Shown here one piece after another: positions 9,067-34,229 of a stretch of DNA of 34,229 nt; position 1 is the first letter of the stretch, and the number at the start of each line of letters is the position of its first letter. A model generated the notes under the pieces. The model had not been told where the DNA came from, made no database searches, and saw nothing but the letters and a program-made list of their open reading frames with translations. The stretch is from Desulfobacterales bacterium (lineage in GTDB: Bacteria > Desulfobacterota > Desulfobacteria > Desulfobacterales > B30-G6): NCBI GenBank assembly GCA_029939655.1, contig JAOZSO010000001.1:1-34229 (forward strand), in the 5' to 3' direction. The position numbers and the translations under genes are program-made.

Positions 9067-11715
9067 ATGAAAAATCTCTTCAAAACAATTTTGCATGATC
9101 GCCATGTCGACCTGGGTGCCCAGATGGTCGAATTCGGGGGCTGGGTCATGCCCATACAGTATCCACAGGGAATTGTCCGGGAACACCTTGCAACAAGACG
9201 GCATGCCGGTCTTTTTGATGTGTCGCATATGGGCCGATTCACTCTCCGTGGTCAGGATGCGCTGCCGTTTTTACAGCATGTCCTTTCCAACAATGCCGTC
9301 GGACTTGAGGAGGGAGAAAGTCAGTATACCTTGATTCCAAATGATCGCGGCGGCGCCATCGACGATGCCTATCTCTATCGCTTTCATGCAGATGAATACC
9401 TGCTGGTGGTCAATGCCGGCAACCGTCTCAAAGACTGGGATCACTTTCAGTCATCTCTGCCTGATTTCAAAAATGTCATCATGGAGGATAAAACCAAAGA
9501 CATATCCATGCTGAGCCTGCAGGGATCGACTTCCAAAGACATACTTCAAAAGATAATGGACACCGGCGCTCTTCCGGAACCCATGCGAAACCATCTCAGC
9601 ATTGCCACCATTCAAGGTAGAAAAGTATTGATCGCGCGCACGGGATACACCGGGGAACCCCTCTGCTTTGAACTGTTCATCGACAGTGCTGACACACCCG
9701 GTATCTGGGATCTGCTGATGGATCAGGGCGCCCACCCTGTTGGACTGGGTGCGCGGGACACTCTCAGACTTGAAGCAGGTCTTCCGCTGTACGGACACGA
9801 ACTGGGAATGGATCCGGACAATAAGGAAATCCCGATCTACGCGTCGCCTCTGTCAAGGTTTGCTGTGAGTCTGTCTCCTTTAAAAAAAGACTTCATCGGT
9901 CGAAATGCCCTTGAAAAGCAATTTGAAGCATTTAAAAAAATTGCTGACCGGGACTATTCCCTCATTCATGACCTCCCTCGCTGCATCATGCCGGTGGCAT
10001 TGAAAAAAAAGAGCGTAGCCCGTGCCGGATACAAGGTTTTTCAGGGTAATCGTCATGTCGGATATGTCACCAGCGGCACCATGATTCCGAGATGGGAGAT
10101 CGAGGGAGAAGGCATCTTCTCGAAATTGACCGAGAATCATGGTCTCAGAGGAATCTGCCTGGCACTGGTAGACAGCACGCTGGTGGAAGGCGACGACATC
10201 GAGATCGAAATCCGGTCAAAACAGGTGCCGGCGGTTATCGTTCCCTTTCATATGCGAAGCGAAGCACCGCCCTTTGCCAGGTCTATCCCCTGGGACAGGA
10301 TTGGGCAGGAAAAGGGACCGTCAGGAAAAGAGGAAATATCCAAAAACGTTCAATCTCTTCTCATAAAATCGATTCGAAATACAGAATGGCGGCAAAAGGA
10401 GTGCATCAACCTCATCCCGTCAGAACAGACCCAGTCCGAACTCATACGCTTGCTCTCCATCATGGACCCCTGCGGACGGTATGCTGAACACAAGCAGGTA
10501 AGTGCATTCAGTGAAGCCGAGGTTTTTTATTACCAGGGAACCGATTTCATTGCCGAAGTCGAGGCAAAACTCGAAACAGAGTTAAAAAAGTTTTTTGGGT
10601 GTCAGCAGGTCGAAACCCGACTGGTCTCGGGCCAGATGGCCAATATGGCCCTGTTCAGCGCACTGGTGGACTATATCAATCGAGCCGACCGGAAAAGTGA
10701 GCAACGACGACTCAGGAAAGTGATGAACAACCATATCATCAAAGGCGGCCATCTGAGTGCACAGCCCATGGGAGCGTTGAGAGACTTTGTGGCCCGGGAC
10801 CCCTTGTCTGAAAAACCGGCTGTGGTAAACTTTCCGGTCCTGCCCGAGAACCCCTATAAAATTGACCTGAGTGCCTGCGAGACTCTCATCCAAAAACATG
10901 AACCGGAACTTATTATCTTTGGCAAAAGTATGGTCCTCCACAAGGAGCCCGTCACAGAAGTTCGTCGAATAATCAATGGTCTGGGAATTGATTCGGTTAT
11001 CATGTACGATATGGCTCACGTTCTGGGCCTGGTAGGCCCCCACTTTCAGGAGCCATTTAAAGAAGGAGCGGATTTCATAACAGGATCTACCCATAAAACC
11101 TTTTTCGGGACACAACGGGGTATCATCGGCACGGATATCACGGATGAAGACCCCCGGTTCGAACTGTGGGAAGCCGTAAAACGCCGGGCATTCCCCGGAA
11201 GTGTCAGCAATCATCACCTGGGAACGATTTTAGGACTCCTGATGGCGACATACGAGATGAACCATTTCAAAGATGAATACCCTAAAAAAGTGCTCGACAA
11301 TGCACGCGTCTTCGCCAAAGCATTGAACGACTGCGGATTGAGCGTGGCCGGCGATCCGGAAATCTCTTTTACAGAAACCCACCAGGTTATACTCAACGTC
11401 GGCTATGCAAAGGGGCCTGCGATCGCCAGGAAACTGGAAGAGAACAACCTCATCGTCAACTACCAGGCAGCCCCGGTGGAAGAAGGTTTTACGGCTTCCG
11501 GATCTCTTCGCATGGGTGTACAGGAAATGACACGTTTTGGCATGGAGGCTACGGATTTCGAAGAACTGGCGCAATTCTTCAAGGATGTTCTGGTGGATAA
11601 CCGGACCGTCAAGGAAGCCGTTATATCGTTTCGAAACCGTTTTTTAGAGATGAAATACTGTTTTACAACGGATCAGGTCGGTGATAAAATCCAGAAATTG
11701 CATGAACTACTATAA
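9067..11715 (+). CDS. gcvT: Fusion protein: glycine-cleavage T protein (aminomethyltransferase) N-terminal half plus serine hydroxymethyltransferase-like PLP domain C-terminal half
   Basis: Residues 1 to about 420 are GcvT-like (HAGLFDVSHMGRF, EYLLVVNAGN, GARDTLRLEAGLPLYGHEL). Residues about 440-882 are SHMT-like (NLIPSEQ, VSGQMANMALF, YDMAHVLGLVG, PLP-lysine motif GSTHKTFFGTQRG). It is a single uninterrupted 882-aa ORF with an AAGGAG SD. Confidence 0.85.
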   Translation: MKNLFKTILHDRHVDLGAQMVEFGGWVMPIQYPQGIVREHLATRRHAGLFDVSHMGRFTLRGQDALPFLQHVLSNNAVGLEEGESQYTLIPNDRGGAIDDAYLYRFHADEYLLVVNAGNRLKDWDHFQSSLPDFKNVIMEDKTKDISMLSLQGSTSKDILQKIMDTGALPEPMRNHLSIATIQGRKVLIARTGYTGEPLCFELFIDSADTPGIWDLLMDQGAHPVGLGARDTLRLEAGLPLYGHELGMDPDNKEIPIYASPLSRFAVSLSPLKKDFIGRNALEKQFEAFKKIADRDYSLIHDLPRCIMPVALKKKSVARAGYKVFQGNRHVGYVTSGTMIPRWEIEGEGIFSKLTENHGLRGICLALVDSTLVEGDDIEIEIRSKQVPAVIVPFHMRSEAPPFARSIPWDRIGQEKGPSGKEEISKNVQSLLIKSIRNTEWRQKECINLIPSEQTQSELIRLLSIMDPCGRYAEHKQVSAFSEAEVFYYQGTDFIAEVEAKLETELKKFFGCQQVETRLVSGQMANMALFSALVDYINRADRKSEQRRLRKVMNNHIIKGGHLSAQPMGALRDFVARDPLSEKPAVVNFPVLPENPYKIDLSACETLIQKHEPELIIFGKSMVLHKEPVTEVRRIINGLGIDSVIMYDMAHVLGLVGPHFQEPFKEGADFITGSTHKTFFGTQRGIIGTDITDEDPRFELWEAVKRRAFPGSVSNHHLGTILGLLMATYEMNHFKDEYPKKVLDNARVFAKALNDCGLSVAGDPEISFTETHQVILNVGYAKGPAIARKLEENNLIVNYQAAPVEEGFTASGSLRMGVQEMTRFGMEATDFEELAQFFKDVLVDNRTVKEAVISFRNRFLEMKYCFTTDQVGDKIQKLHELL

Positions 11716-17631: not shown

Positions 17632-19068
17632 TTATATTTCACATTCATTTATAATTGCTTCCATTGCATCTTCTGCTCCTTCTGGTAAAGCCATCGGCTT
17701 GTGGTTCTTGATAAGAAATCTGGCTTTTTCATACGCCCTTTCGATAATGTCTTTCCCACCGATTTTTTTAACCCAGGTATCGCGGTCCATACAATCAAAC
17801 AAATCTCTTTGGGACATGCTTTTCATGTGTTTTAGTGTGTGTTTGCTAGATAAATATTCACCACCAGAGCTTACGCTTTGAATTGTTTCTAAAGCTATTG
17901 TCTCATCAGAAATGTCCATCCCATTTTTTATCCATTTTAAATTCCTTAATTGTTCAGCATCCAGAATCAGCTTTGCAAAATCAAACGTCAGTCCTGATTC
18001 AATAGAACCACATCCATAGATGACATTAGATCCGGCCAGTAATGCTATAGCCGTATTTGTGTTAAATTCATAAGCGGCCTGTACATCCATAAGTTTACTT
18101 CCGCTAACACCTGAACCACACCAACTTGGGATTCCATAATATTGCGCCATTTTTGCAGTCCCAACATTCAAAACACCACATTCTGGGGCAGCGACAGCAG
18201 GATTACCGAGTTTCAAATCCATAATTGTTCCCACACTACCATAAATGAAAGGTGTACTTTTTGAAGTAAGTTGGGTCAAAACTAAAGAACCAAGAAGTTC
18301 TGCATTCTGTACAACCAGGGTTCCAGCGATTGTCGTGGGCGCCGTAGCACCACTCAATGGCATCGTAATTGAACAAACCACAACACCTAATCTTGAGCAT
18401 TCTATAATGACATCACAGCAATTCTTAGAGAGTGTGAGTGGGCTAGTTGGGCAAACGGTGGTGGACACACAAGGACGCTTAATAAAATTCTCCATGCCAC
18501 CGACGCAGGCCGCTGCCATCTCAACAATCTTTATTGAGTTTCTCCCACTAAAAAAACCATGAAAGGCATGCTTACTTGTGTTTGAAACAATTGCTTCGTA
18601 ATTATGCATGGACTGCGTCTCGGCAGGCTTATCCCGTGATCCCATACATTTTTCAATAATTGCAAATTCATCTAACGCATCAGCCAATCGTGTTGCATCC
18701 CCTAAATCTTTCTTTGTACAAGTTCTGTGTTTTAAAGTGTAAAGGTCGTTAGTATAAGAATTTTCACCAAATAGTGTATAGCAGGAACTTCCAGGTTCGA
18801 TAAGATGATCGTGTTTGGGATCCCTTCCATACAAAACAAACCGTTCTGGTGCCCATTGAACACAATCACTAACTACGGATGGAGGAATCTTAACAACAAA
18901 ACAATCCCCCTTTTTAACAATCTCCGATCCAGCACCATGAAAGATCTCTGTTGCCTCATCTGACTCAATTTTTATCCCCGTATTTTCCAATATCTTAATA
19001 GATGCATGATGAATTCTATGAAGTTGTTCATTTGTAATCCCTTCTATTTGATATCCGAGCATATACAT
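17632..19068 (-). CDS. MttB-superfamily (COG5598) methyltransferase, non-pyrrolysine paralogue; probable quaternary-amine:corrinoid methyltransferase
   Basis: 478 aa, uninterrupted. It is colinear with the Pyl-type mttB below (CPTSPL, MPLSGATAPTTIAGTLVVQNAELLG, APECG). A sense Val codon (18106-18108) sits where mttB has TAG. Confidence 0.85.
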   Translation of the reverse strand: MYMLGYQIEGITNEQLHRIHHASIKILENTGIKIESDEATEIFHGAGSEIVKKGDCFVVKIPPSVVSDCVQWAPERFVLYGRDPKHDHLIEPGSSCYTLFGENSYTNDLYTLKHRTCTKKDLGDATRLADALDEFAIIEKCMGSRDKPAETQSMHNYEAIVSNTSKHAFHGFFSGRNSIKIVEMAAACVGGMENFIKRPCVSTTVCPTSPLTLSKNCCDVIIECSRLGVVVCSITMPLSGATAPTTIAGTLVVQNAELLGSLVLTQLTSKSTPFIYGSVGTIMDLKLGNPAVAAPECGVLNVGTAKMAQYYGIPSWCGSGVSGSKLMDVQAAYEFNTNTAIALLAGSNVIYGCGSIESGLTFDFAKLILDAEQLRNLKWIKNGMDISDETIALETIQSVSSGGEYLSSKHTLKHMKSMSQRDLFDCMDRDTWVKKIGGKDIIERAYEKARFLIKNHKPMALPEGAEDAMEAIINECEI

Positions 19069-19134: not shown

Positions 19135-19788
19135 TTATTCAACGCTAAGCAATTCTTTAATTTTTTCTACGCCATCTTGAGCATTTTTTGCATACGCATC
19201 AGCTCCAATTCTCGCGGCCCAACGGGGAGTTACCGGTGCACCGCCGACAACTGTTTTAAAGCGATCTTTTAATCCTTCAGATTTAAGCACAACTTCTAGG
19301 TCCTTCTGTCGCGGCATGGTTGTGGTAAGCAGCGCGCTGGTACCAATAATATCCGCATCAATCTCTATGGCTGTTTCAATTATTTGCTGGGTGGCCACAT
19401 CCCTCCCTGCATCATGGACCTTAAATCCATTTGCTTGCATCAGTGAAACAACAATGCATTTTCCAATATCATGAACGTCACCCTGGACTGTAGCAATAAG
19501 AACTGTCCCTTTTTCTTGCTTAGCGTTAATCCCGCCACTTAAAGTTTCATTCACCATGTCGGTAACCACCTTCATGATTTCCGCAGCTTGTATAAGCTCT
19601 GGTAAAAACAACCTGCCGCGTCCAAACAAGTCACCCGTTGCGTTAATTCCTGGAATAAAACCTTCCTCCATCAGTTCCAGTGGGCTGCCCCCATCACTGA
19701 GATAATTTTTTACGATCTCAATGGCCCTGTCTTTGTTTGCTTTAATTAGAACTTCCGCCGTTTCTTCGATAATACTTTTATCGATCAT
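19135..19788 (-). CDS. Corrinoid (cobalamin-binding) methyl-carrier protein, MtbC/MttC-like
   Basis: 217 aa. B12-binding DxHxxG motif GDVHDIGK, plus SALLTTT and GGA elements. An N-terminal helical cap domain is present. Confidence 0.9.
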   Translation of the reverse strand: MIDKSIIEETAEVLIKANKDRAIEIVKNYLSDGGSPLELMEEGFIPGINATGDLFGRGRLFLPELIQAAEIMKVVTDMVNETLSGGINAKQEKGTVLIATVQGDVHDIGKCIVVSLMQANGFKVHDAGRDVATQQIIETAIEIDADIIGTSALLTTTMPRQKDLEVVLKSEGLKDRFKTVVGGAPVTPRWAARIGADAYAKNAQDGVEKIKELLSVE

Positions 19789-19847: not shown

Positions 19848-21221
19848 CTAACGTCTGAAACGGTTTAGGGAATTAATTTCAATATCCAACAGTTTTGCAA
19901 TATTATATTTTGCTTCAATGCCTTTTGGAGAACCCATGGTGGAATAGACACTCCCTATCTTATGGTCTTCTCTAACATCACTCATCACAGCAGCATCAGT
20001 AAGCTCATTAACACTAATTCCTAATTTGTCCGCCACATACTTTTTTGCATCTTTTATTTTCATAGCCCGGGTCATTTGCATGCGTGCGACCAGATCTCCG
20101 GAAGTACGCATTCCGCCCATGCCTGCGGCCATTGCATGTGGTATCGCCACCCCTGCGGGGTCTCCGTCGCCAACCTACAACCCGTCCAATCGTGTAATCT
20201 CTAAATGTGCCTTTGAAGCCATGGTCACTGCGTCAATCGGTGGTGTATAACACAATGGTAAACCGCCCACCCCCATTCCTAAATTCGCATGTACAGGAAT
20301 TTCAGCAGCGTCAACACAGGCTTTTGTGAATGTAACCGCACGTGCAATGTTCCAGGGAATAGACTCGGTAGGATCTGTATTTATCGCTGGTCCGAATATG
20401 TCCACACCAGCTTCTTGCGCGACCTTAACCTGTTCGTGGGGATAGAGCCCGGCAAGGCGTACACCGTTGTGAGAAATCTCCCCATGCATTCCCAAGATAA
20501 ATTCCCCGGCCATTCCGATTTCGACACACATACTTGGGTACTTCTCCTTCAGCTCCTGCACCGCTAATAATGTTGCTTTAAAATCAGGATCACCAGAACC
20601 CCCAACCGTATCGAAATTTATCCCATCCGCTCCAGCTTCAAATAGGGAGGATGATACATAAACCATATCACGAACAGAATGCTCGATAGCTTCATCGTAT
20701 GCATCACGCGCTTCTTTGATTTTTCCCTGAGGAATCAGTTCTGCCGGGTTGGTGACAGGCCCATCCGGTTTGGTGTAAAGACCGAGATTTGGCATTGATC
20801 CATAAAAGACAGGAGCCACCATGAGCAATTGTGCTTGCTCCATGAGAGGAACATTTTCTCGAACGATGTGTTTTGCTTGCTTGAAGCTGTAATCGAGGTC
20901 TGATAGCTCAGTGGTGTCAGCTCCGAAACAACGCTCATAGGTCTGAAGCACTTGTAAGCGACCGGTATTTATGCCAAGCCTTCCGATCTTATTGCTTCCA
21001 CCATCATAGGTCATTATAACCTCATACCCTTTTTCAACCCCTGATATGCTACAACTGCATTTGCATATTTCAAACAAATGTTTTCGTTCATCATCAGTGA
21101 GAGGCTGTATCTCTGCCCGATCTGCGGCATCCAGGGTTCCATCTTCAATGTCTTGAATTAGTTCTTTTTCATCTATCTCAACAGAAAAACCATCTCCCAT
21201 GCGGGTTATTACTTTGCTCAT
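19848..21221 (-). CDS. mtbB: Dimethylamine:corrinoid methyltransferase with an in-frame UAG (predicted pyrrolysine) at 20175-20177
   Basis: Track ORFs 20175..21221 and 19848..20150 are in the same frame. Translation across the gap reads [42 protein letters not shown], and the TAG is the only stop. The combined 457 codons are colinear with Methanosarcina MtbB (about 467 aa) along the whole length. AAGGAGG SD precedes the ATG at 21221. Confidence 0.9.
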
Positions 21222-21235
21222 TTAGTCCTCCTTTA

Positions 21236-22702
21236 TTATATTCCTAATTCCTTTTCCGCTTCCTCCACAATTGAGTGAATTCTCTTTTGGATATCATCCG
21301 CTATTGGATCAGGAGTATGAGTCTCCAGAATTTCTATGGCTTTCTCCGTTGCTTTTTTGTATATATCCGGCTTGCCGGCTTGTTCCCAATCTTCACGCAT
21401 CGTTCGGTCAAAAACTCTGGGCGCAGATATAGATCTCATGTGGCGTAGCGTGCTATCATGGCTGAGGAAGTCTTTCCCGATTCCAATTTCTTTTATAGCA
21501 TCCACAGCCAGGGTTTCATCATTTACCGCTATCCCGTTCACCACATGCCTGACCATTTGTGCAACTTCATTATCCAACACAAGTTGTCCAAAATCAAAGG
21601 TCATTCCCATCTCGATCATTCCCATGCCGTATATCAGGTTGGCCCCTGCCAACGCCGGCAATAACGACGTCATCGTTTTTTCATGACCGGTTTGGAAATC
21701 TGTAGCTTTTGTATCGCCCTACCCGCCGGCAACAAAGCTTGGCAATGCATAATAACGAGCCAATCTCGCAACAGCCGCACTGATCATTGCGCATTCTGGG
21801 GATCCCACCGATGCGCTCGCCATTCTTAAATCCATGGCTGTCGTCGAACTGCCGTATATGACCGGTCCACCCTTTATAGTGAGCTGGTTAAGCAAAATTC
21901 CAGATAGAATTTCGGCGTTATGGATTACCAATGTCCCGGCAAGTGTTACCGGAGACGAGCCTCCCGCCATTGCCATGGAGAGAATATTGACACCGATTCC
22001 GTGTCTAGCTGCCCCCATGATGACTTCACAGGTATCTTTAACCAATTTAAGCGGGCTCACCGGACAAGTGATCGTTGTGTAGATGGGTCTCTGCCTTAAC
22101 GCATCCTTGCCACCAGCGATTACGGTAGCCATTTCCACTATTTTATCGAGTTGGTAACCTGAAAATGCTCCCATGAAAAGGTGTTTACTTGTATTGTTGA
22201 ATGAATCTTCCGCATTATAAATCTGGGCAATTTCCTGAGGAACTTCATGTGCTCCAACGGCCCGTTCATAGACATCGATCTCGCTCAGATAGTCAGCCAA
22301 CTTGGCTGCATTGGCCACATCTTTTCTGGTGGGCTTTCTTCTTTCACCCGTGTAGGGATCGATTACAAAAACGCCCTCTCCAAAAGTAGTAAACCCGACT
22401 CTATTGCTTTCTAATATGGTATCGTTTTTTGGATTGCGACCTGCCAGAAAGAGCTTTGGCGGAGCACTGCGAATGGCATCTTCCACTATATATGGAGGAA
22501 TTTTTACGATTTTCTTTTTTGCATTAACGGCGGCACCACCACCATCAAAAATATCCAGAGCTTCCTCATCTTCAACAAATATTCCAGTTTTCTCAAGAAT
22601 CTCTAATGTTGCCAAATGAATTTCGTCGCACTCCTCTTCAGTAAATGAATTTAGGCCGAATCCGCCACTGAGCTTCTTCCCTGCATGTAGGTTTCGCTTC
22701 AT
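21236..22702 (-). CDS. mttB: Trimethylamine:corrinoid methyltransferase with an in-frame UAG (predicted pyrrolysine) at 21719-21721
   Basis: Track ORFs 21719..22702 and 21236..21673 are in the same frame. Translation reads [45 protein letters not shown]. The combined 488 codons are colinear with Methanosarcina MttB (about 495 aa), and the TAG is the only interruption. Confidence 0.9.
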
Positions 22703-22790: not shown

Positions 22791-22822
22791 CTGGAGCCTT
22801 GTTATTAACAACAAGGCTCCAG
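22791..22822 (-). terminator. Probable intrinsic terminator hairpin after the solute-binding-protein gene
   Basis: Perfect 13-bp stem ctggagccttgtt / aacaaggctccag with a 6-nt loop, beginning 6 nt after the TAA stop. On the minus strand it is followed by UUCUUCUAUG, a partial U-tract. Confidence 0.55.
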
Positions 22823-22828
22823 CTTTGA

Positions 22829-24412
22829 TTATGCAAACCACCATCGTTCATGGATTCTACGACCGTCATACATGGCATTGGAGGCAATGGTGTTATACCT
22901 CAATTTACTGCTTGCTACATAAACAAAGTTACTAAAAATGGGAATGATTGAGGAACCTTCATCATGGACAATTTTTTGCATTTCCCAATACATATCGCGA
23001 CGCTTGACTTCATTCAGCTCAGATCGAGCCTCTTTGAGGAGCTTGTCGAATCGTGCATTCTTCCAATAGCTCTCATTCCAGTTTGCTGATCCAGCATATA
23101 CAAGCGATAACATCCAGTCTTCTGTGGGCCGACCATACCAGAAACTCCAGCACATGCCTTTCTTCATCCATACATCCTCCCAATAACCGTCATTCGGTAC
23201 CTTTTTAGTCTTGAGTTTCACTCCTGCTTTTTCGGCAGACTCTTGGAATAAGAGAGCCGAGTCTATTGCCCCGGCAAAAGCTGTATCAGCGGCATAAAGC
23301 TCGAAAGTATGATCTAACATACCGGCTTTCTTCAAGTAAAATTTAGCCTTATCCGGATCATAAGTCCTCTGAGGCAATTCAGAGTTGAAATATCGGTTCT
23401 TCTGTGAGATTGGATGATCGTTTCCAAGAGAACCGTAACCACGTAAAACCTGTTTTAACATCAACTCACGATCAAAAGCGTATTTTAATCCCAATCGGAC
23501 ATTATTATCATTGAAGGGCTTCTGGGTCGTCAACATAGGCATGGTATAGTGGGCATACCCTGGAACGTCTATAATTTGCACATTTTTATTCTTTTTCAGA
23601 AATTGAACCGTCTTAAGATCAGGTCGGGCAAATACATCTAATTCGCCGGTTACTACAGCAGAGGTCCTGGATACGACATCCGGTAAGGCCATCGTTTCAA
23701 CTTCATCAAAATAGGGAAGTCCCTCCTTGAAATAATTTGGGTTACGCGTAGTGAAAGCCCGGACACCTGGCTCCCAACTTTTAAGGATAAAGGGGCCTGT
23801 TCCCATCCCTTTTTCAAAATCGGTTGTCCCGTTTGGTACGACCATAAGATTCACTTCTGCCAAGAAATAGGGGAAGTCGGCATTCCCTGATTCAAGTGTG
23901 AAGATCACCTGGTTGTTACCATCTTTCTTTATGTCCGTAACAGGCTTAAGAATACCTTTTGCCGGAGATTTGGTCTTTTCGGTTCTACTAAGATTTATGG
24001 AATAGATAACGTCATCAGCATCCAGCGGCTTGCCGTTATGAAATTCGACGCCTTTTCGGAGGTTGAAAATCCATTGTTTTGCATCCGGTGTTGACTCCCA
24101 GTTTTCCGCAAGCTCCGGGGTAGCAACACCTTTTTCATCAATTACAATCAACTGGTTTCGACATTGTTGACTGACCAATTGAGGCATAATATCTGTCAAC
24201 AATGTGATATCTAGGCTCTCTGTTGTGGCACCACTGTGGCTCCCAATTCTCAAGCGGCCACCCTGTTTGGGGGTTGCGGCATGTGCTGTGCTATTAGCCA
24301 ATAAAGGCGACATAGCCACAGAAAGCCCCATAGCAGACACGTAGGCTAAGAAATCGCGGCGAGTAATTTTCCCTTGAAATAGCAAACGTTCCAACTCCTG
24401 CAATTTTTCCAT
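22829..24412 (-). CDS. ABC-transporter substrate-binding protein, family 5 (peptide/opine/nickel type), with a Tat-type signal peptide
   Basis: 527 aa. Twin-arginine motif TRRDFLAYVSAMGLSVAM...AHA. The length and sequence character are those of DppA/OppA-like SBPs. AAGGAGG SD is present. Confidence 0.8.
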   Translation of the reverse strand: MEKLQELERLLFQGKITRRDFLAYVSAMGLSVAMSPLLANSTAHAATPKQGGRLRIGSHSGATTESLDITLLTDIMPQLVSQQCRNQLIVIDEKGVATPELAENWESTPDAKQWIFNLRKGVEFHNGKPLDADDVIYSINLSRTEKTKSPAKGILKPVTDIKKDGNNQVIFTLESGNADFPYFLAEVNLMVVPNGTTDFEKGMGTGPFILKSWEPGVRAFTTRNPNYFKEGLPYFDEVETMALPDVVSRTSAVVTGELDVFARPDLKTVQFLKKNKNVQIIDVPGYAHYTMPMLTTQKPFNDNNVRLGLKYAFDRELMLKQVLRGYGSLGNDHPISQKNRYFNSELPQRTYDPDKAKFYLKKAGMLDHTFELYAADTAFAGAIDSALLFQESAEKAGVKLKTKKVPNDGYWEDVWMKKGMCWSFWYGRPTEDWMLSLVYAGSANWNESYWKNARFDKLLKEARSELNEVKRRDMYWEMQKIVHDEGSSIIPIFSNFVYVASSKLRYNTIASNAMYDGRRIHERWWFA

Positions 24413-25864: not shown

Positions 25865-27628
25865 TTAACCAAAATCTAAATCATCCACCGGGATACCATC
25901 CTCATTCCAACCTCTAAGCTGGTAATAATTCTGAATCATTTTTTCCAGTTCTTCCGGTTTAATAACCTTCCCACCACTTATGGGCTCGGAGAAATATCTC
26001 GGTGGCAGGGTATCATCCTTTTTCGATATGCCTTCTCGCAGGTTAAACCGTCGGCTAAGATTACGAATGTTCGCCGCAATTTCTTTAAGACCATCATGGT
26101 TAAGTTTCATGCCCATTGTGCCTTGGATTATTTTGGCCAAACCATCCCAAGCATAGATATCACGATAAAACCTGCAGGTAATAAATGCATCATGCAGCGT
26201 AAGGCGATCTTCGAAATCAATTGCTATTTCAGCCTTACCTTCAATTTCATCAGGTGCTATTTGCCCGGACAGTTCAGCCTTGAAAACAGTGCTTCGTAAA
26301 TGGCATGCGCCTCTATCCGAAGTCGCATACGCCAGGCCCATTCCTTTTAGAACTCTTGGATCATAAGCTGAAGGCTCTAAACCTTTAACGTGAATGGCTA
26401 TATCTTTCATACCCCATTCTTGAGCTGCATGTCGTATCCCTTCAGCCAAAACAGCTCCTATGCCACGTCGATAGGCAATATCATTTAGTAATGAAACAAT
26501 ACCGTCTACATCTCCGTAGTCATACTTTTCTTTGATTTTGCCTCGTCTGGAAGCTTCTATAGTAAAAGCGGCTAAATTGCCTGCGGTAATTGTATCCAAG
26601 CCCAACCGATCACAGACATCGTTGAGGTAGACGATCTCATTAATATTAGGAATCTCGCAGAGGCCCCCAAAAGAATATATTGTCTCAAATTCGGGGCCTT
26701 CAAGTTTTAAGCCTTTATGCCTACCATCCCTTACTTCGGTTAACCTTCCGCAGGCCATTAAGCATTTAGCACAAGCATGGGGCTTGACATTACACTGTTC
26801 ATGAAGACCTTCGGCCGAAATATTCTCCCAACCGTCAAGAGTACCTTTAGACCAATAACGCGTGGGAAATGAACCGATTTTATTGAGAACACTCACCAGA
26901 GCCGGTGTGCCCTTAGTCTTAAAACCTTGTATGACAGGATTTGTCTTTCTTTCAGAACTTATCTGAGACCATAGTTCTTCCAATATTTCAGGTTCGGCTA
27001 CCTCTTTTTGGGCGGACCCGCTAAAGGCCATACCCTTAATATTTTTAGCGCCTAAAACCGCACCAATACCTGTCCTTCCGGCAGATCGCCAGTAATTGTT
27101 TGCCACTAACGAAAAACGCACAAGGTTTTCACCCGCAGGACCTATAACCATGATACCGGATTGTTTACCTACAAGATCACGAACAGCGTCTTGGGCGTCA
27201 TAAACCTCCATCCCCCAAATATTTCCCGCTTCGTGAAAAGTTATGCCGTTGTCCGTAATTTCCAGAACAGTCGGGCTTGATGCAGCGCCCCGCAATATGA
27301 AAGCATCGTACCCAACATGCCCCATGAATTCTGCAACAGACCCCCCCGAATAGGACTCAGCATATATCCCTGTTTGAGGTGATTTACTGAATAAACCATA
27401 CCGACTGGAACCCCATACTTTGGTATTTACAGTCGGGCCTAACGCGATCACCACGTGATTATCCGGAGAAAAAGGATCAATATTTGGCTTGTTCTTTTTT
27501 AAGAGCAGGTACGTGGCAAGACCCTTTCCTCCTATCAGAGACTCATAGATGCTGTCTGGGATTTCTATAGTGTTGCTGGTTTCATGCGTCAGATCAATTT
27601 CCAATACTTTCCCGTAAACCCCCTTCAT
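25865..27628 (-). CDS. aor: Aldehyde:ferredoxin oxidoreductase family protein (tungstopterin / 4Fe-4S)
   Basis: 587 aa. The N-terminus GKVLEIDLT..., the CxxCxxxC cluster motif (CAKCLMAC) and the overall AOR-family architecture are present. Confidence 0.85.
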   Translation of the reverse strand: MKGVYGKVLEIDLTHETSNTIEIPDSIYESLIGGKGLATYLLLKKNKPNIDPFSPDNHVVIALGPTVNTKVWGSSRYGLFSKSPQTGIYAESYSGGSVAEFMGHVGYDAFILRGAASSPTVLEITDNGITFHEAGNIWGMEVYDAQDAVRDLVGKQSGIMVIGPAGENLVRFSLVANNYWRSAGRTGIGAVLGAKNIKGMAFSGSAQKEVAEPEILEELWSQISSERKTNPVIQGFKTKGTPALVSVLNKIGSFPTRYWSKGTLDGWENISAEGLHEQCNVKPHACAKCLMACGRLTEVRDGRHKGLKLEGPEFETIYSFGGLCEIPNINEIVYLNDVCDRLGLDTITAGNLAAFTIEASRRGKIKEKYDYGDVDGIVSLLNDIAYRRGIGAVLAEGIRHAAQEWGMKDIAIHVKGLEPSAYDPRVLKGMGLAYATSDRGACHLRSTVFKAELSGQIAPDEIEGKAEIAIDFEDRLTLHDAFITCRFYRDIYAWDGLAKIIQGTMGMKLNHDGLKEIAANIRNLSRRFNLREGISKKDDTLPPRYFSEPISGGKVIKPEELEKMIQNYYQLRGWNEDGIPVDDLDFG

Positions 27629-29879: not shown

Positions 29880-29896
29880 AGCAAAAACAATGCCAA
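29880..29896 (-). promoter_or_regulatory. Sigma-54 (-24/-12) promoter upstream of the dehydratase operon
   Basis: The minus strand reads TTGGCATTGTTTTTGCT, that is TGGCAT-N5-TTGCT with the canonical GG-N10-GC spacing. It lies about 100-120 nt upstream of the ilvD-like start and immediately downstream of a sigma-54 enhancer-binding-protein gene. Confidence 0.75.
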
Positions 29897-30091: not shown

Positions 30092-31846
30092 TCATTTCTG
30101 AATTAAACCGAATGAAAGCCCATGTTTTTTCAACTTGCGGAAAGCGGTTGGCTGGCTGATCCCCAGAAGCTTTGCAAGCTCGTGAGTTGTTTTGCATTTT
30201 GGCATGGCGCTTTTCAGTACCTCCTTTTCAAACGATAACAGCGAGTCCGATAAATTCTTTTTTCGTGTTGCTGAAGAGTTGCTTTTTGTAAGTAGTGCGA
30301 AGGATCCTTTCAATGCCTGTAGGATCAATACATCTAAATTTCTTTCTTCGCTGATGACTACTGCTTGTTTAATCACATTCATCAACTCGCGAACGTTTCC
30401 CGGAAATGGATAGGATTGAAGCGCTTCTACAGCCTTGGCTGTTATCCACCGTTGCACACCATAGGCTTTATTATATTTTTCAAGAAAATGTGTAGTAAGT
30501 TCAAATATGTCATTCTGCCGTTCGCGAAGGGGTGGAATTTTTAAGGTAAAGGAATTTAAACGATAGTACAAATCCTCTCGAAATTTATTGATTTTTGTAA
30601 GGTTGCCCAAATCACGGTTTGTTGCAGCGATGACGGTACAATCTATGGCTATGGTTTTTGTTCCGCCCAGACGCGTGATGATATTGTCATCAAGATATTT
30701 CAGGAGCTTCGCCTGAGTTGTTAAGGACAAATCACCTATTTCATCTAAAAAAAGAATTCCCCCCTGAGCCAATTCGAACAAACCAGCCTTACCTTCTTCG
30801 CTAGCTCCAGTAAAAGCACCTTTCTCGTAACCAAAAAGTTCCGCCTCCAAAAGGTTTTCGGGCACAGCTGCGCAGTTGATTTGAATAAGTGGCGCCTTTT
30901 TTCTTTTGCCGTTCTGGTGTATGAATTTTGCCAAAAGCCCCTTTCCGGTCCCGGACTCTCCCAAAATTAAAATATTGGACACCTTTAGTGTTGCAAGTTT
31001 CAAAGCAATTCTCAGCACCTGTCTCATCTCCTGACTTTTTGCAATAATTTCCTGCTGCTTCAACTCTATCACACTAAGTTCATTGAGTTTGTCCTTGTAT
31101 TTATTTGCAACCAAACGAGTTTCATTTAATTGCTTTTGTATTGCATTTAGCTGTGAAAGATCTCGTTCATTGAGCACCACCATATAAATATCACCGTTCT
31201 CATTAAAAACTGGTGTTCCGGTTACCAATAAATGCTTTTCTGTTTTCTGGACGTATACAAGTAAGCTTACTCGACGTTTTGTTTTTAGTATCTCCATTGT
31301 AACACTTCGATCTATTATACCCTTATCAACCATCATAGAAACATTTCTACCAATGATATCCTTTTCCTTCCATCCATTTAGTTGTTGAGCTGCTTTGTTC
31401 ATGCGGATAAAATTCCCCCGGCCATCCAAAATAACAAGACCGTCGGAAGAAGAGGAGAAAACCGTTTCAAATTGATCGGTTAGCTGTTGGTATGATTCTA
31501 ACCTTTGAGCTGAATTTTCAAACTGCTGCATTTTCTGGAAGTTGCTAACAGCGCCAACAACCATTCCGGCTTTTCGAATAGCGGTAACGTTTACAACAAG
31601 ATGAACATTTTTCCCCCGAATATGGACACCAATTTGGGGCTTACCGGTTTTCAGACAGTCGACGATATGATGACTGGTTAATGGCAACACTTCAATGACA
31701 TTAGAGCCAATAACTTCGTTTTTCTTTAATCCCAATATCCTCATAGCTTTCTGATTGACTAATACGATACAACCGCGAGCATCTGCAGCGATAACACCGT
31801 TACTGGTTGAATTAAATATATCCTGAACGGTAATTAAATGTGACAT
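30092..31846 (-). CDS. Sigma-54-dependent transcriptional activator with two N-terminal PAS domains and a C-terminal Fis-type HTH
   Basis: AAA+ core with GESGTGKGLLAKFIH and the GAFTGA motif (EKGAFTGA), plus ESELFGYE-like ELFGYEKG. The C-terminus HELAKLLGISQPTAFRKLKKHGL is an HTH. Confidence 0.9.
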   Translation of the reverse strand: MSHLITVQDIFNSTSNGVIAADARGCIVLVNQKAMRILGLKKNEVIGSNVIEVLPLTSHHIVDCLKTGKPQIGVHIRGKNVHLVVNVTAIRKAGMVVGAVSNFQKMQQFENSAQRLESYQQLTDQFETVFSSSSDGLVILDGRGNFIRMNKAAQQLNGWKEKDIIGRNVSMMVDKGIIDRSVTMEILKTKRRVSLLVYVQKTEKHLLVTGTPVFNENGDIYMVVLNERDLSQLNAIQKQLNETRLVANKYKDKLNELSVIELKQQEIIAKSQEMRQVLRIALKLATLKVSNILILGESGTGKGLLAKFIHQNGKRKKAPLIQINCAAVPENLLEAELFGYEKGAFTGASEEGKAGLFELAQGGILFLDEIGDLSLTTQAKLLKYLDDNIITRLGGTKTIAIDCTVIAATNRDLGNLTKINKFREDLYYRLNSFTLKIPPLRERQNDIFELTTHFLEKYNKAYGVQRWITAKAVEALQSYPFPGNVRELMNVIKQAVVISEERNLDVLILQALKGSFALLTKSNSSATRKKNLSDSLLSFEKEVLKSAMPKCKTTHELAKLLGISQPTAFRKLKKHGLSFGLIQK

Positions 31847-32804: not shown

Positions 32805-34229
32805 CTAAAAAGTGCTTCCTGCTCGATGGATTTCAATCAGCTCGCCGAAGTCGTTCAAAGATTTTTCTATGCATTCCAACAATAGTGTGGTCTCACGAGT
32901 TTTACTGGTAGCATTCACGACGATGTGATTCTCATGGATAACGTAACCAAGTCCGTAACCCTCAGGGTCCACTGGCCCGAAACCAACTAAGCCAATGGAC
33001 GGCGAACGCAGACCGCTGGTAGAGAGTATGACTCGGTCCAGAATCTCGGCGGTAGCACCAGCGCGGAACAGTGGATGTTCTCGGCCGCTGAGTTCCGACA
33101 AGGTCCGGAGTGCAAACAGATGGCGATCAAAACCCTGGCCGCTACTGCAATCCTTTATCAGTTGAACGTGTCGGTGGGCTGCCAGGTCCAACAACGCCCA
33201 TTGATCAGACCGGGATGCGGCATTGTCAAAACCGGTGACCAGTTCGAGAGATTCAGGTGTTACCGTCCGGATAGCACTTCCGCGCCCGAACTTGTATTTG
33301 CGGGTATTGACCGATTCATAGGCGCTGTACAATCTATCAAAACGGCGAAAACAGCCCATCTGAAAGGCAAGTTGTAAAATTACATCTGGGCTGAAACCGT
33401 TGCCTGCGATATGGTTCTTACCGAAACGTTTGTACGATAGCACACGGGTTTCATTTTCCCCGATCAGCGTATCTACATCTGTTTCGGCTGTGCGGATAGC
33501 CGATATGATAGTCGGTGGCAACCGCCAATGAATCTCTTCAACATTTTTGCTATTGAAGAGTTCAGTTGATCCGGTAGAAGGATCATCGGCCAAATCATGG
33601 CTAAGTCCAGTATGGATTTCATCAATGAAGCGCACGGCAGTGAGACCGTCCACAAGGGTGTGCTCGGTGTTGACACCAAAGGATCCGTCAGCGGCCAGAA
33701 TGACCTGAATTGGTTTGTCGAACCAGCGGTTGCGGCCGTCGCCGTGCAGCACCATTCTAGAAAGCTCCGCCAGATCCCGTGGTGCCGATTCTTCGAGGCA
33801 CAGAACAAACAGGGCACTATCAACTAGAGATAAAGAATCCTGGTTGAGAACATCAAAGGCAGCCAAACAGCTGCGCCAGACAGCCCAATCGGTGCGGTTA
33901 GCGCTGGTCATCACCCCAACCGACCCGATCGAAGAGTCTTTTAATGTCGGGCTATCGGCGACATCAATGATCCATTGCAATGCGTTTTCCAATTCCGCTT
34001 GCGGCAAGGGTTGCCCGTGCACATCAAGGATATTCAAACGAAAAAACCGATTACGGTGTAAAACGACGATGTGGCGTGTAAGCGCAAAAGTGACAAATTG
34101 ATCCATTCGAATGTGAGGAATCCGACCTGAGGAAAACATCGTCTTGTATTGGGACATGCACCGGGGCACATCCTTTTGCACGTCGGGCGGAAGGCGGTCC
34201 AGAACCTTGCCGACCCGCGTATTCAGTCG
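32805..34229 (-). CDS. Choline/carnitine O-acyltransferase family protein (PF00755-like); N-terminus lies outside the window
   Basis: Family motifs are present in order: CMSQYKTMFSSGRIP, NRWFDKPIQ, catalytic-His motif NTEHTLVDG, LSTSGL and FGPVDPEGYGLGY. The frame stays open to nt 34229, and the GTG at 34181 is internal. TAG stop. Confidence 0.8.
   Translation of the reverse strand, partial: RLNTRVGKVLDRLPPDVQKDVPRCMSQYKTMFSSGRIPHIRMDQFVTFALTRHIVVLHRNRFFRLNILDVHGQPLPQAELENALQWIIDVADSPTLKDSSIGSVGVMTSANRTDWAVWRSCLAAFDVLNQDSLSLVDSALFVLCLEESAPRDLAELSRMVLHGDGRNRWFDKPIQVILAADGSFGVNTEHTLVDGLTAVRFIDEIHTGLSHDLADDPSTGSTELFNSKNVEEIHWRLPPTIISAIRTAETDVDTLIGENETRVLSYKRFGKNHIAGNGFSPDVILQLAFQMGCFRRFDRLYSAYESVNTRKYKFGRGSAIRTVTPESLELVTGFDNAASRSDQWALLDLAAHRHVQLIKDCSSGQGFDRHLFALRTLSELSGREHPLFRAGATAEILDRVILSTSGLRSPSIGLVGFGPVDPEGYGLGYVIHENHIVVNATSKTRETTLLLECIEKSLNDFGELIEIHRAGSTF

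Follow-up and report, generated by a model that had tools for sequence, protein, structure and literature searches.

Is the in-frame UAG that interrupts a trimethylamine methyltransferase gene of an uncultured Desulfobacterales bacterium a genuine stop, or is it decoded as pyrrolysine (Pyl)? The question arises from a stretch of 34,229 nucleotides (contig JAOZSO010000001.1, positions 1 to 34,229; hereafter the window), for which an original prediction, made from the letters alone, had proposed a Pyl codon in a gene of the mttB family. The gene is a single frame, interrupted only by a UAG at the catalytic Pyl column, and selection at the protein level acts on either side of that codon. From sequence comparison, the stretch 22702→21236 is very probably a functional Pyl-encoding mttB. 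Two features are central to the argument:

21236..22702, minus strand: mttB, predicted Pyl-type trimethylamine:corrinoid methyltransferase; ATG at 22702-22700 with AAGGA 9 nucleotides (nt) upstream; matches Pfam MTTB, TIGR02369 and 7XCL
21719..21721, minus strand: in-frame UAG, predicted Pyl codon 328; aligned with X334 of 7XCL, TAG kept in orthologues

On the minus strand the gene comprises 489 codons in one frame (488 including UAG328, plus the terminal TAA), and its sole internal stop is the TAG of codon 328, which reads CTA on the plus strand. Translation of 21236-22702 confirmed the coordinates originally given for the gene and for its TAG (codon 328 of 488), to which we add the strand, left unstated at the time; it revealed no further stops and none of the additional frameshifts against which the original prediction had cautioned. 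The two same-frame fragments then described are both in the list of open reading frames (ORFs), at 21719..22702 (327 amino acids, aa) and at 21236..21673 (145 aa, from an internal ATG), and the peptide quoted across them is exact. ENA, NCBI, JGI and Logan assemblies supply 11 independent contigs with this 327-aa fragment, identical in sequence and ended by the same TAG, which excludes an error of sequencing or assembly. On all 11 contigs, gene callers cut mttB into 327 + 145 aa and the neighbouring gene mtbB into 348 + 100 aa. In GenBank, where the proteins of the locus are filed as 'Deltaproteobacteria bacterium' entries from metagenome-assembled genomes (MAGs), the N-terminal piece of mttB is a 'hypothetical protein' (RLC06133.1) and a Pyl-less paralogue nearby bears the name 'Trimethylamine methyltransferase MttB' (RLC06128.1).

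Family membership locates the UAG precisely. Both fragments match Pfam MTTB (PF06253; 8e-58 and 1e-29) as well as NCBIfam TIGR02369 (trimeth_pyl), of which the first covers positions 1-313 (490.2 bits) and the second positions 315-469 (246.2 bits), so that position 314 is the only one skipped between them, at the TAG. Their simple summed score of ~736 bits compares with a cut-off of 525, below which either fragment falls singly. The best match of the mttB protein in the PDB is MttB of Methanosarcina barkeri (7XCL/7XCM/7XCN; E 1e-126, 427 bits), and the X at codon 328 aligns with the X (Pyl334) of 7XCL chain A with no gaps nearby. The Methanosarcina sequence given in the original prediction, with Pyl near residue 334, equals residues 324-361 of this chain, with X at 334. 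Against the glycine-betaine enzyme MtgB (2QNE/9YCE) the window protein scores 268 bits, and because this compares with 427 bits to Pyl-MttB, the protein clusters with the true Pyl-type enzymes. Placement of the TAG on the Pyl column and affiliation with Pyl-type rather than non-Pyl MttB, two points left for later checking, were thus both borne out.

The surroundings of the Pyl residue are also preserved. In M. barkeri MttB, the partners of Pyl334 are Gly110, Tyr364 and Met249, the last acting as a gate (PMC9842639). Through the 7XCL alignment, Gly110, Met249 and Tyr364 map to Gly108, Met243 and Tyr358 of the window protein; Met243 and Tyr358 are invariant in our orthologue alignment (A3), and Gly108 is not.

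Could the TAG be a nonsense mutation in a pseudogene whose downstream part is decaying? The splitting of the gene by callers on every contig and the 'hypothetical protein' label would fit such a history, and one orthologue (L030) is truly frame-broken. A genome scan with one genome per species gave 24 mttB-related loci, 56-82% identical, from Desulfobacterales MAGs (82% identity) through Desulfobacterium, Desulfamplus, Desulfocicer vacuolatum DSM 3385, Desulfobacula and Desulfosarcina down to Aminicenantes/Acidobacteriota (56%). Codon 328 is TAG in 23/24 of these, the frame then remaining open for ~160 codons to a real stop, and a metagenome scan added 80 more mttB loci with TAG at codon 328 in 80/80. 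Synonymous sites between the window mttB and its relatives are saturated, with a proportion of synonymous differences (pS) of ~0.7-0.8, and the codons beside the TAG vary freely at the third position (GGG/GGA/GGU/GGC), the TAG itself being unchanged. Over the 160 codons that follow, the proportion of non-synonymous differences (pN) is 0.13-0.31 and the ratio of non-synonymous to synonymous rates (dN/dS), where dS can be estimated, is 0.07-0.13, values similar to those of the N-terminal part. Decay would not keep a TAG at the same codon in >100 orthologues despite saturated flanking third positions, nor would it leave such constraint behind the stop, spare the frame further stops and frameshifts, and place the stop exactly on the Pyl column. 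A pseudogene is extremely improbable and effectively already refuted by conservation; the preference for recoding over decay in the original prediction was well placed.

The frame-broken orthologue is a case apart. Located at L030:10001-10875 on a 2.58-Mb long-read-style contig, it alone among the orthologues lacks an intact frame and has several stops from codon 101 on; it may be either a real pseudogene or a product of indel errors.

Another possibility is that UAG328 truly terminates translation, yielding a 327-residue protein, perhaps with a separately initiated C-terminal fragment, in a cell whose Pyl machinery is lacking or unexpressed. Several results weigh against a Pyl-decoded mttB. 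In the 34-kb window there is no tRNA (ARAGORN), no match to a purpose-built tRNA-Pyl covariance model and no PylS or PylBCD protein family, and on the 66-kb source contig no pyl genes lie within ~10 kb beyond either window end. Whole-database PylS searches gave nine PylS candidates, all from samples other than this organism's. Some orthologues have Ser where PMC9842639 gives an invariant Gly110, although the window protein has Gly, and the corrinoid protein of the locus scores 200.3 bits against TIGR02370, just below the cut-off of 215.3, and 197 bits against the MtbC model. True termination would be consistent with the failure to find pyl genes in the window, in its vicinity and in the organism's samples, and with the use of TAG as a working terminator here. 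It would also accord with the competition between Pyl insertion and termination that is expected in Pyl-using bacteria, whose machinery can be expressed conditionally (Prat et al. 2012, as cited in PMC8318568).

The evidence within the gene points the other way. A conserved start codon with a Shine-Dalgarno motif 3′ of the TAG was seen in 0-1 of 97 orthologues, which makes separate translation of the C-terminal piece unlikely. The TIM-barrel active site needs Gly108 and Met243 from before the TAG and Tyr358 from after it, and if the TAG were not read through, there would be little reason for strong purifying selection to persist in this frame beyond it. Moreover, pyl genes occur in all close relatives examined, and it is from relatives that we infer the Pyl machinery of this genome. 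At locus L021, pylT-pylSc-pylB-pylC-pylD-pylSn lie directly upstream of the orthologous TAG-mttB, and pylT adjoins the mttB orthologue in L019-L022, L026 and L027. Since the genomes of the nearest well-assembled relatives, a Desulfobacterium chromosome (7.85 Mb, L011) and Desulfocicer vacuolatum DSM 3385 (L013), encode PylS elsewhere, a location of the pyl genes apart from mttB is normal in this sub-clade. Taken together, true termination is quite improbable, and Pyl decoding remains the reading that we prefer.

The arrangement of the pyl genes themselves differs between clades. The canonical pylT-Sc-B-C-D-Sn order is present in L021, L129 and L133, unlike the Desulfobacterium-like clade, in which four loci (L041:3739-8849, L043:4565-8870, L044:4111-8849 and L047:4111-8849) have the order MFS transporter-pylC-pylD-gap-pylSc-AFOR, the last being an aldehyde:ferredoxin oxidoreductase. 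Within 8 kb of these four loci there was no pylT (by ARAGORN or covariance model), no pylB and no pylSn. An aldehyde:ferredoxin oxidoreductase also lies near the window mttB, at 25865-27628.

What amino acid, if any other than Pyl, could UAG328 encode? The remaining genes of the block bear on this question, and on the minus strand they run in the order solute-binding protein, mttB, mtbB, corrinoid protein and Pyl-less MttB paralogue:

22829..24412, minus strand: family-5 periplasmic solute-binding protein, directly upstream of mttB
19848..21221, minus strand: mtbB, predicted Pyl-type dimethylamine methyltransferase, 14 nt downstream of mttB; AGGAGG before the ATG
19135..19788, minus strand: corrinoid (B12-binding) protein of MttC/MtbC type, putative methyl acceptor; Pfam B12-binding + B12-binding_2
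17632..19068, minus strand: MttB-superfamily paralogue without Pyl (Val in that column); identity to the Pyl copy 39%

The gene mtbB has a single internal UAG at 20175-20177 (codon 349), which falls between the matches 6-355 and 357-464 to the profile of the Pyl-type dimethylamine methyltransferase, in agreement with the original claim that this neighbour, too, carries one in-frame TAG at its Pyl position. The internal TAG is kept in 36 distinct orthologues. The terminator of mtbB is also TAG (19848-19850); read-through of it by tRNA-Pyl would lengthen the protein by 13 residues (GWIQNLKHSINAY), up to a TAA. The Pyl-less paralogue scores 282 bits to 7XCL versus 188 bits to MtgB, and with TIGR02369, the Pyl-type equivalog, it reaches 525.3 bits where the cut-off is 525.

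Read-through with a standard amino acid, by a near-cognate or other suppressor tRNA or by reassignment of UAG throughout the genome, draws on the fact that the inserted residue is not identifiable from sequence alone. Reassignment is contradicted by the other uses of TAG, which ends 4/24 window genes (AtuA, mtbB, the 103-aa ORF and the carnitine-acyltransferase-like gene) and 1/15 further genes on the flanking contig, 5/39 in total. As TAG also terminates ordinary genes, recoding would be gene- or condition-specific rather than a reassignment of the codon. In the window and its flanks, internal TAGs are confined to the two methylamine methyltransferase genes, mttB and mtbB, each at the family-specific Pyl column. 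Paralogues of the same loci that do without Pyl have Ala, Ile, Ser, Val, His or Leu in this column; because they use sense codons there while the TAG of mttB persists, residue 328 is not expected to be a standard amino acid. We regard a standard residue at this position as highly improbable.

Under Pyl decoding, UAG328 would be read by the amber-suppressor tRNA-Pyl(CUA) in competition with release factor 1. A split PylSn/PylSc synthetase would load this tRNA with pyrrolysine, for which PylBCD would be the biosynthetic enzymes; the genes for all of these, the tRNA included, presumably lie in another part of the genome. At the active site, trimethylamine would be bound by the pyrroline imine of Pyl, aided by Tyr358 and the carbonyl of Gly108, and its methyl group transferred to Co(I) of the corrinoid protein, whose gene is the second one after mttB. 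The dimethylamine left over would be the substrate of the neighbouring Pyl-type MtbB, and tetrahydrofolate would take up the methyl groups for oxidation, with sulfate accepting the electrons.

If UAG is a stop in some genes and Pyl in others, is there a signal in the RNA that marks the difference? The features that bear on this lie within and just beyond the two UAG codons:

21622..21721, minus strand: Rfam PYLIS_3 (RF02510) match, from the UAG on; 60.8 bits versus a gathering score of 38
21638..21653, minus strand: mttB hairpin GUUGGC-AGGG-GCCAAC, 6 bp; +69 to +84 (U of UAG = +1), 66 nt past the UAG
20090..20101 (extended stem 20087-20104), minus strand: mtbB hairpin core CCGG-AGAU-CUGG; +77 to +88 from the mtbB UAG

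We rejected the PYLIS_3 match as structural evidence. The model has ~8 pairs, mostly non-canonical in the mttB match, and it also scores above threshold on the TAG-less paralogue (18009-18107, minus strand; 40.5 versus 38 bits), so the match reflects conserved coding sequence. RNAalifold on the 24 mttB orthologues did not recover the RF02510 structure, and according to Have et al. 2013 (PMC3639795) mttB has no common structure. The PYLIS_3 model thus largely detects mttB coding sequence and can yield false 'PYLIS' annotations. For mtbB, the PYLIS_2 (RF02509) model matches from the UAG onward, above its gathering score.

A different element emerged from the same alignment of 24 orthologues, in which RNAalifold gives the consensus GUUGGC-AGGN-GCCAAC for a hairpin in codons Ala350-Asn355. 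Pairing was counted on 97 distinct sequences: 99.0% of the stem cells are paired, versus 23-58% in slid registers. The closing pair is G-C in 74 sequences, A-U in 21 and G-U in 1, with one mismatch, and its double changes number 21 versus 5.0 ± 1.8 in shuffles (0/500). The A-U closing pair appears in seven separate clades of a neighbour-joining tree and therefore represents ~7 independent compensatory switches. Codon choice in the stem is nearly fixed (Leu351 UUG 94/97, Ala352 GCA 97/97, Ala354 GCC 95/95), and all four codons are in use for Gly353 of the loop. Across the full gene (110 sequences, 186 windows), the hairpin is the most synonymously constrained window, with an entropy of 0.34 versus a mean of 0.85. 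Its predicted stability is -7 to -11 kcal/mol, compared with -2 kcal/mol for the Rfam consensus of the same peptide.

Simpler sources for this pattern were considered and rejected. An explanation by codon bias or by the peptide fails on the Pyl-less paralogues of the same loci, in which the identical ALAGAN peptide is encoded by freely varying codons and none forms all six pairs. An explanation as a generic repeat fails on position: in 1.1 Mb of examined sequence the palindrome occurs 112 times, each copy 68 nt after a TAG. Longer-range pairs proposed by RNAalifold (columns 28-37 with 94-105) were discarded for lack of covariation.

The neighbouring gene has a hairpin of its own. In mtbB, the four core pairs of C(C/U)GG-AGAU-CUGG are formed in 36/36 sequences with one compensatory switch, and codons +22 to +26 after the UAG are the most constrained window of that gene (0.33 versus 0.86; 154 windows). 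The two hairpins, in unrelated genes, stand at the same offset, 21-26 codons past the UAG. The data thus show a constraint on base pairing that is particular to the genes with a UAG. Chance is an unlikely source of this agreement; we estimate the coincidence of offset alone at roughly 5%.

It is nevertheless doubtful that the mttB and mtbB hairpins form a bacterial cis-element tied to UAG recoding, an idea that we put forward tentatively. Against it stand a distant Pyl-type mttB (L048:4646-5299) that has no hairpin and the single covarying pair in each structure. Because the stems begin ~65-73 nt past the UAG, they cannot touch the ribosome that is decoding it. A putative role might be to pause RNA polymerase or the leading ribosome, or to bind a factor, and such a pause might keep transcription and translation coordinated while the ribosome awaits Pyl-tRNA. 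The constraint may act on the sense or the antisense strand, and as RNA or as a DNA palindrome. The mttB downstream hairpin appears undescribed in the literature that we searched. If the idea were true, the hairpins would be the gene-specific bacterial Pyl-UAG signal sought since 2007, and they offer a concrete, mutable target for asking how bacteria that use UAG as a stop treat Pyl codons differently.

Beyond the methyltransferases, several further features of the window were noted. Upstream of the block lie an aminotransferase, the aldehyde:ferredoxin oxidoreductase, an IlvD-like dehydratase and a sigma-54 activator (30092-31846). Between the solute-binding-protein gene and mttB, at 22791-22822, is a perfect palindrome with a 13-bp stem, CTGGAGCCTTGTT-ATTAAC-AACAAGGCTCCAG, which could be a terminator or a regulatory hairpin dividing transcription units. 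A sigma-54 promoter-like site, TGGCATTGTTTTTGCT, with one mismatch, is located at 29880-29895 (minus strand), next to the sigma-54 activator gene and ~100 nt ahead of the IlvD-like gene. All genes of the minus-strand row as far as the methyltransferases could be transcribed from this site; the scan that gave it showed no enrichment of such sites (18 matches versus 17.9 expected).

At the head of the same strand block, running past the window end (32805-34181, minus strand), is a carnitine/choline acyltransferase-family gene (Pfam Carn_acyltransf; 590 aa on longer contigs), beside which lies an alpha/beta hydrolase. Judging from this pair, the locus may also process quaternary amine esters, at a stage before trimethylamine and dimethylamine. 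The other side of the methyltransferase block holds lipoate synthesis genes and a glycine-cleavage system. There, at 9067-11715 on the plus strand, a GcvT-type aminomethyltransferase (residues 4-395) and a serine hydroxymethyltransferase (432-859) are fused in one 882-aa protein, whose gene heads the gcvH-gcvPA-gcvPB-lipB-lipA cluster that adjoins the methylamine locus.

Correct annotation of this locus matters beyond the gene itself. Owing to the split annotation, metabolic reconstructions of this Guaymas-type sulfate-reducer relative would miss or mis-assign its use of trimethylamine and dimethylamine, which bears on competition with methylotrophic methanogens in marine sediments (PMC8318568).

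How does the locus compare with known systems? With non-Pyl enzymes of the MttB superfamily, such as Desulfitobacterium hafniense MtgB (2QNE/9YCE), the window protein shares the PF06253 fold family, its length and a corrinoid-protein partner; they differ from it by a sense codon at the Pyl column and by the lower of the two alignment scores (268 vs 427 bits). Likeness to M. barkeri MttB (PMC9842639) is closer: the alignment is full length (residues 2-485 versus 3-491) with UAG and Pyl at the same column, the motifs GHEKT and PALAGAN are common to both, the equivalents of Gly110, Met249 and Tyr364 are present, and a cognate corrinoid protein is encoded nearby. The host here, however, is a bacterium related to sulfate reducers, whereas M. 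barkeri is a methanogen; the methyl group would presumably go to tetrahydrofolate rather than to coenzyme M; and the PylS of related bacteria is split into PylSn and PylSc. As to RNA structure, the mtbB hairpin at +77 to +88 is the 3′ hairpin of the PYLIS model RF02509, while the covarying mttB hairpin (+69 to +84) differs from the RF02510 structure, and the Rfam consensus for the same peptide, which is dominated by archaea, does not fold into it.

The closest counterparts are the marine Deltaproteobacteria. Kivenson et al. 2021 (PMC8318568) described, in marine Desulfobacterales, a Pyl-type trimethylamine methyltransferase with its cognate corrinoid protein close by and, in the same locus, a Pyl-less paralogue of 'glycine betaine' type, as well as a dimethylamine methyltransferase with in-frame Pyl; a Guaymas Basin MAG project is among the Pyl-type genomes listed there. 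Zhang & Gladyshev 2007 (PMC1976440) reported Pyl-type MttB and MtbB together with pyl genes in the deltaproteobacterial delta-1 symbiont of Olavius. No conserved RNA structure is reported, or none discussed, in either paper, and at the window locus the pyl genes are not adjacent, unlike in those systems. Because the configuration has been published for this clade and habitat, the mttB find is a correct identification rather than new biology. In clade, habitat type, Pyl-MttB, corrinoid protein, Pyl-less paralogue and Pyl-type MtbB the window resembles these bacteria, and its mttB fits a wide distribution of Pyl-dependent methylamine metabolism among the Desulfobacterales, for which evidence has been published.

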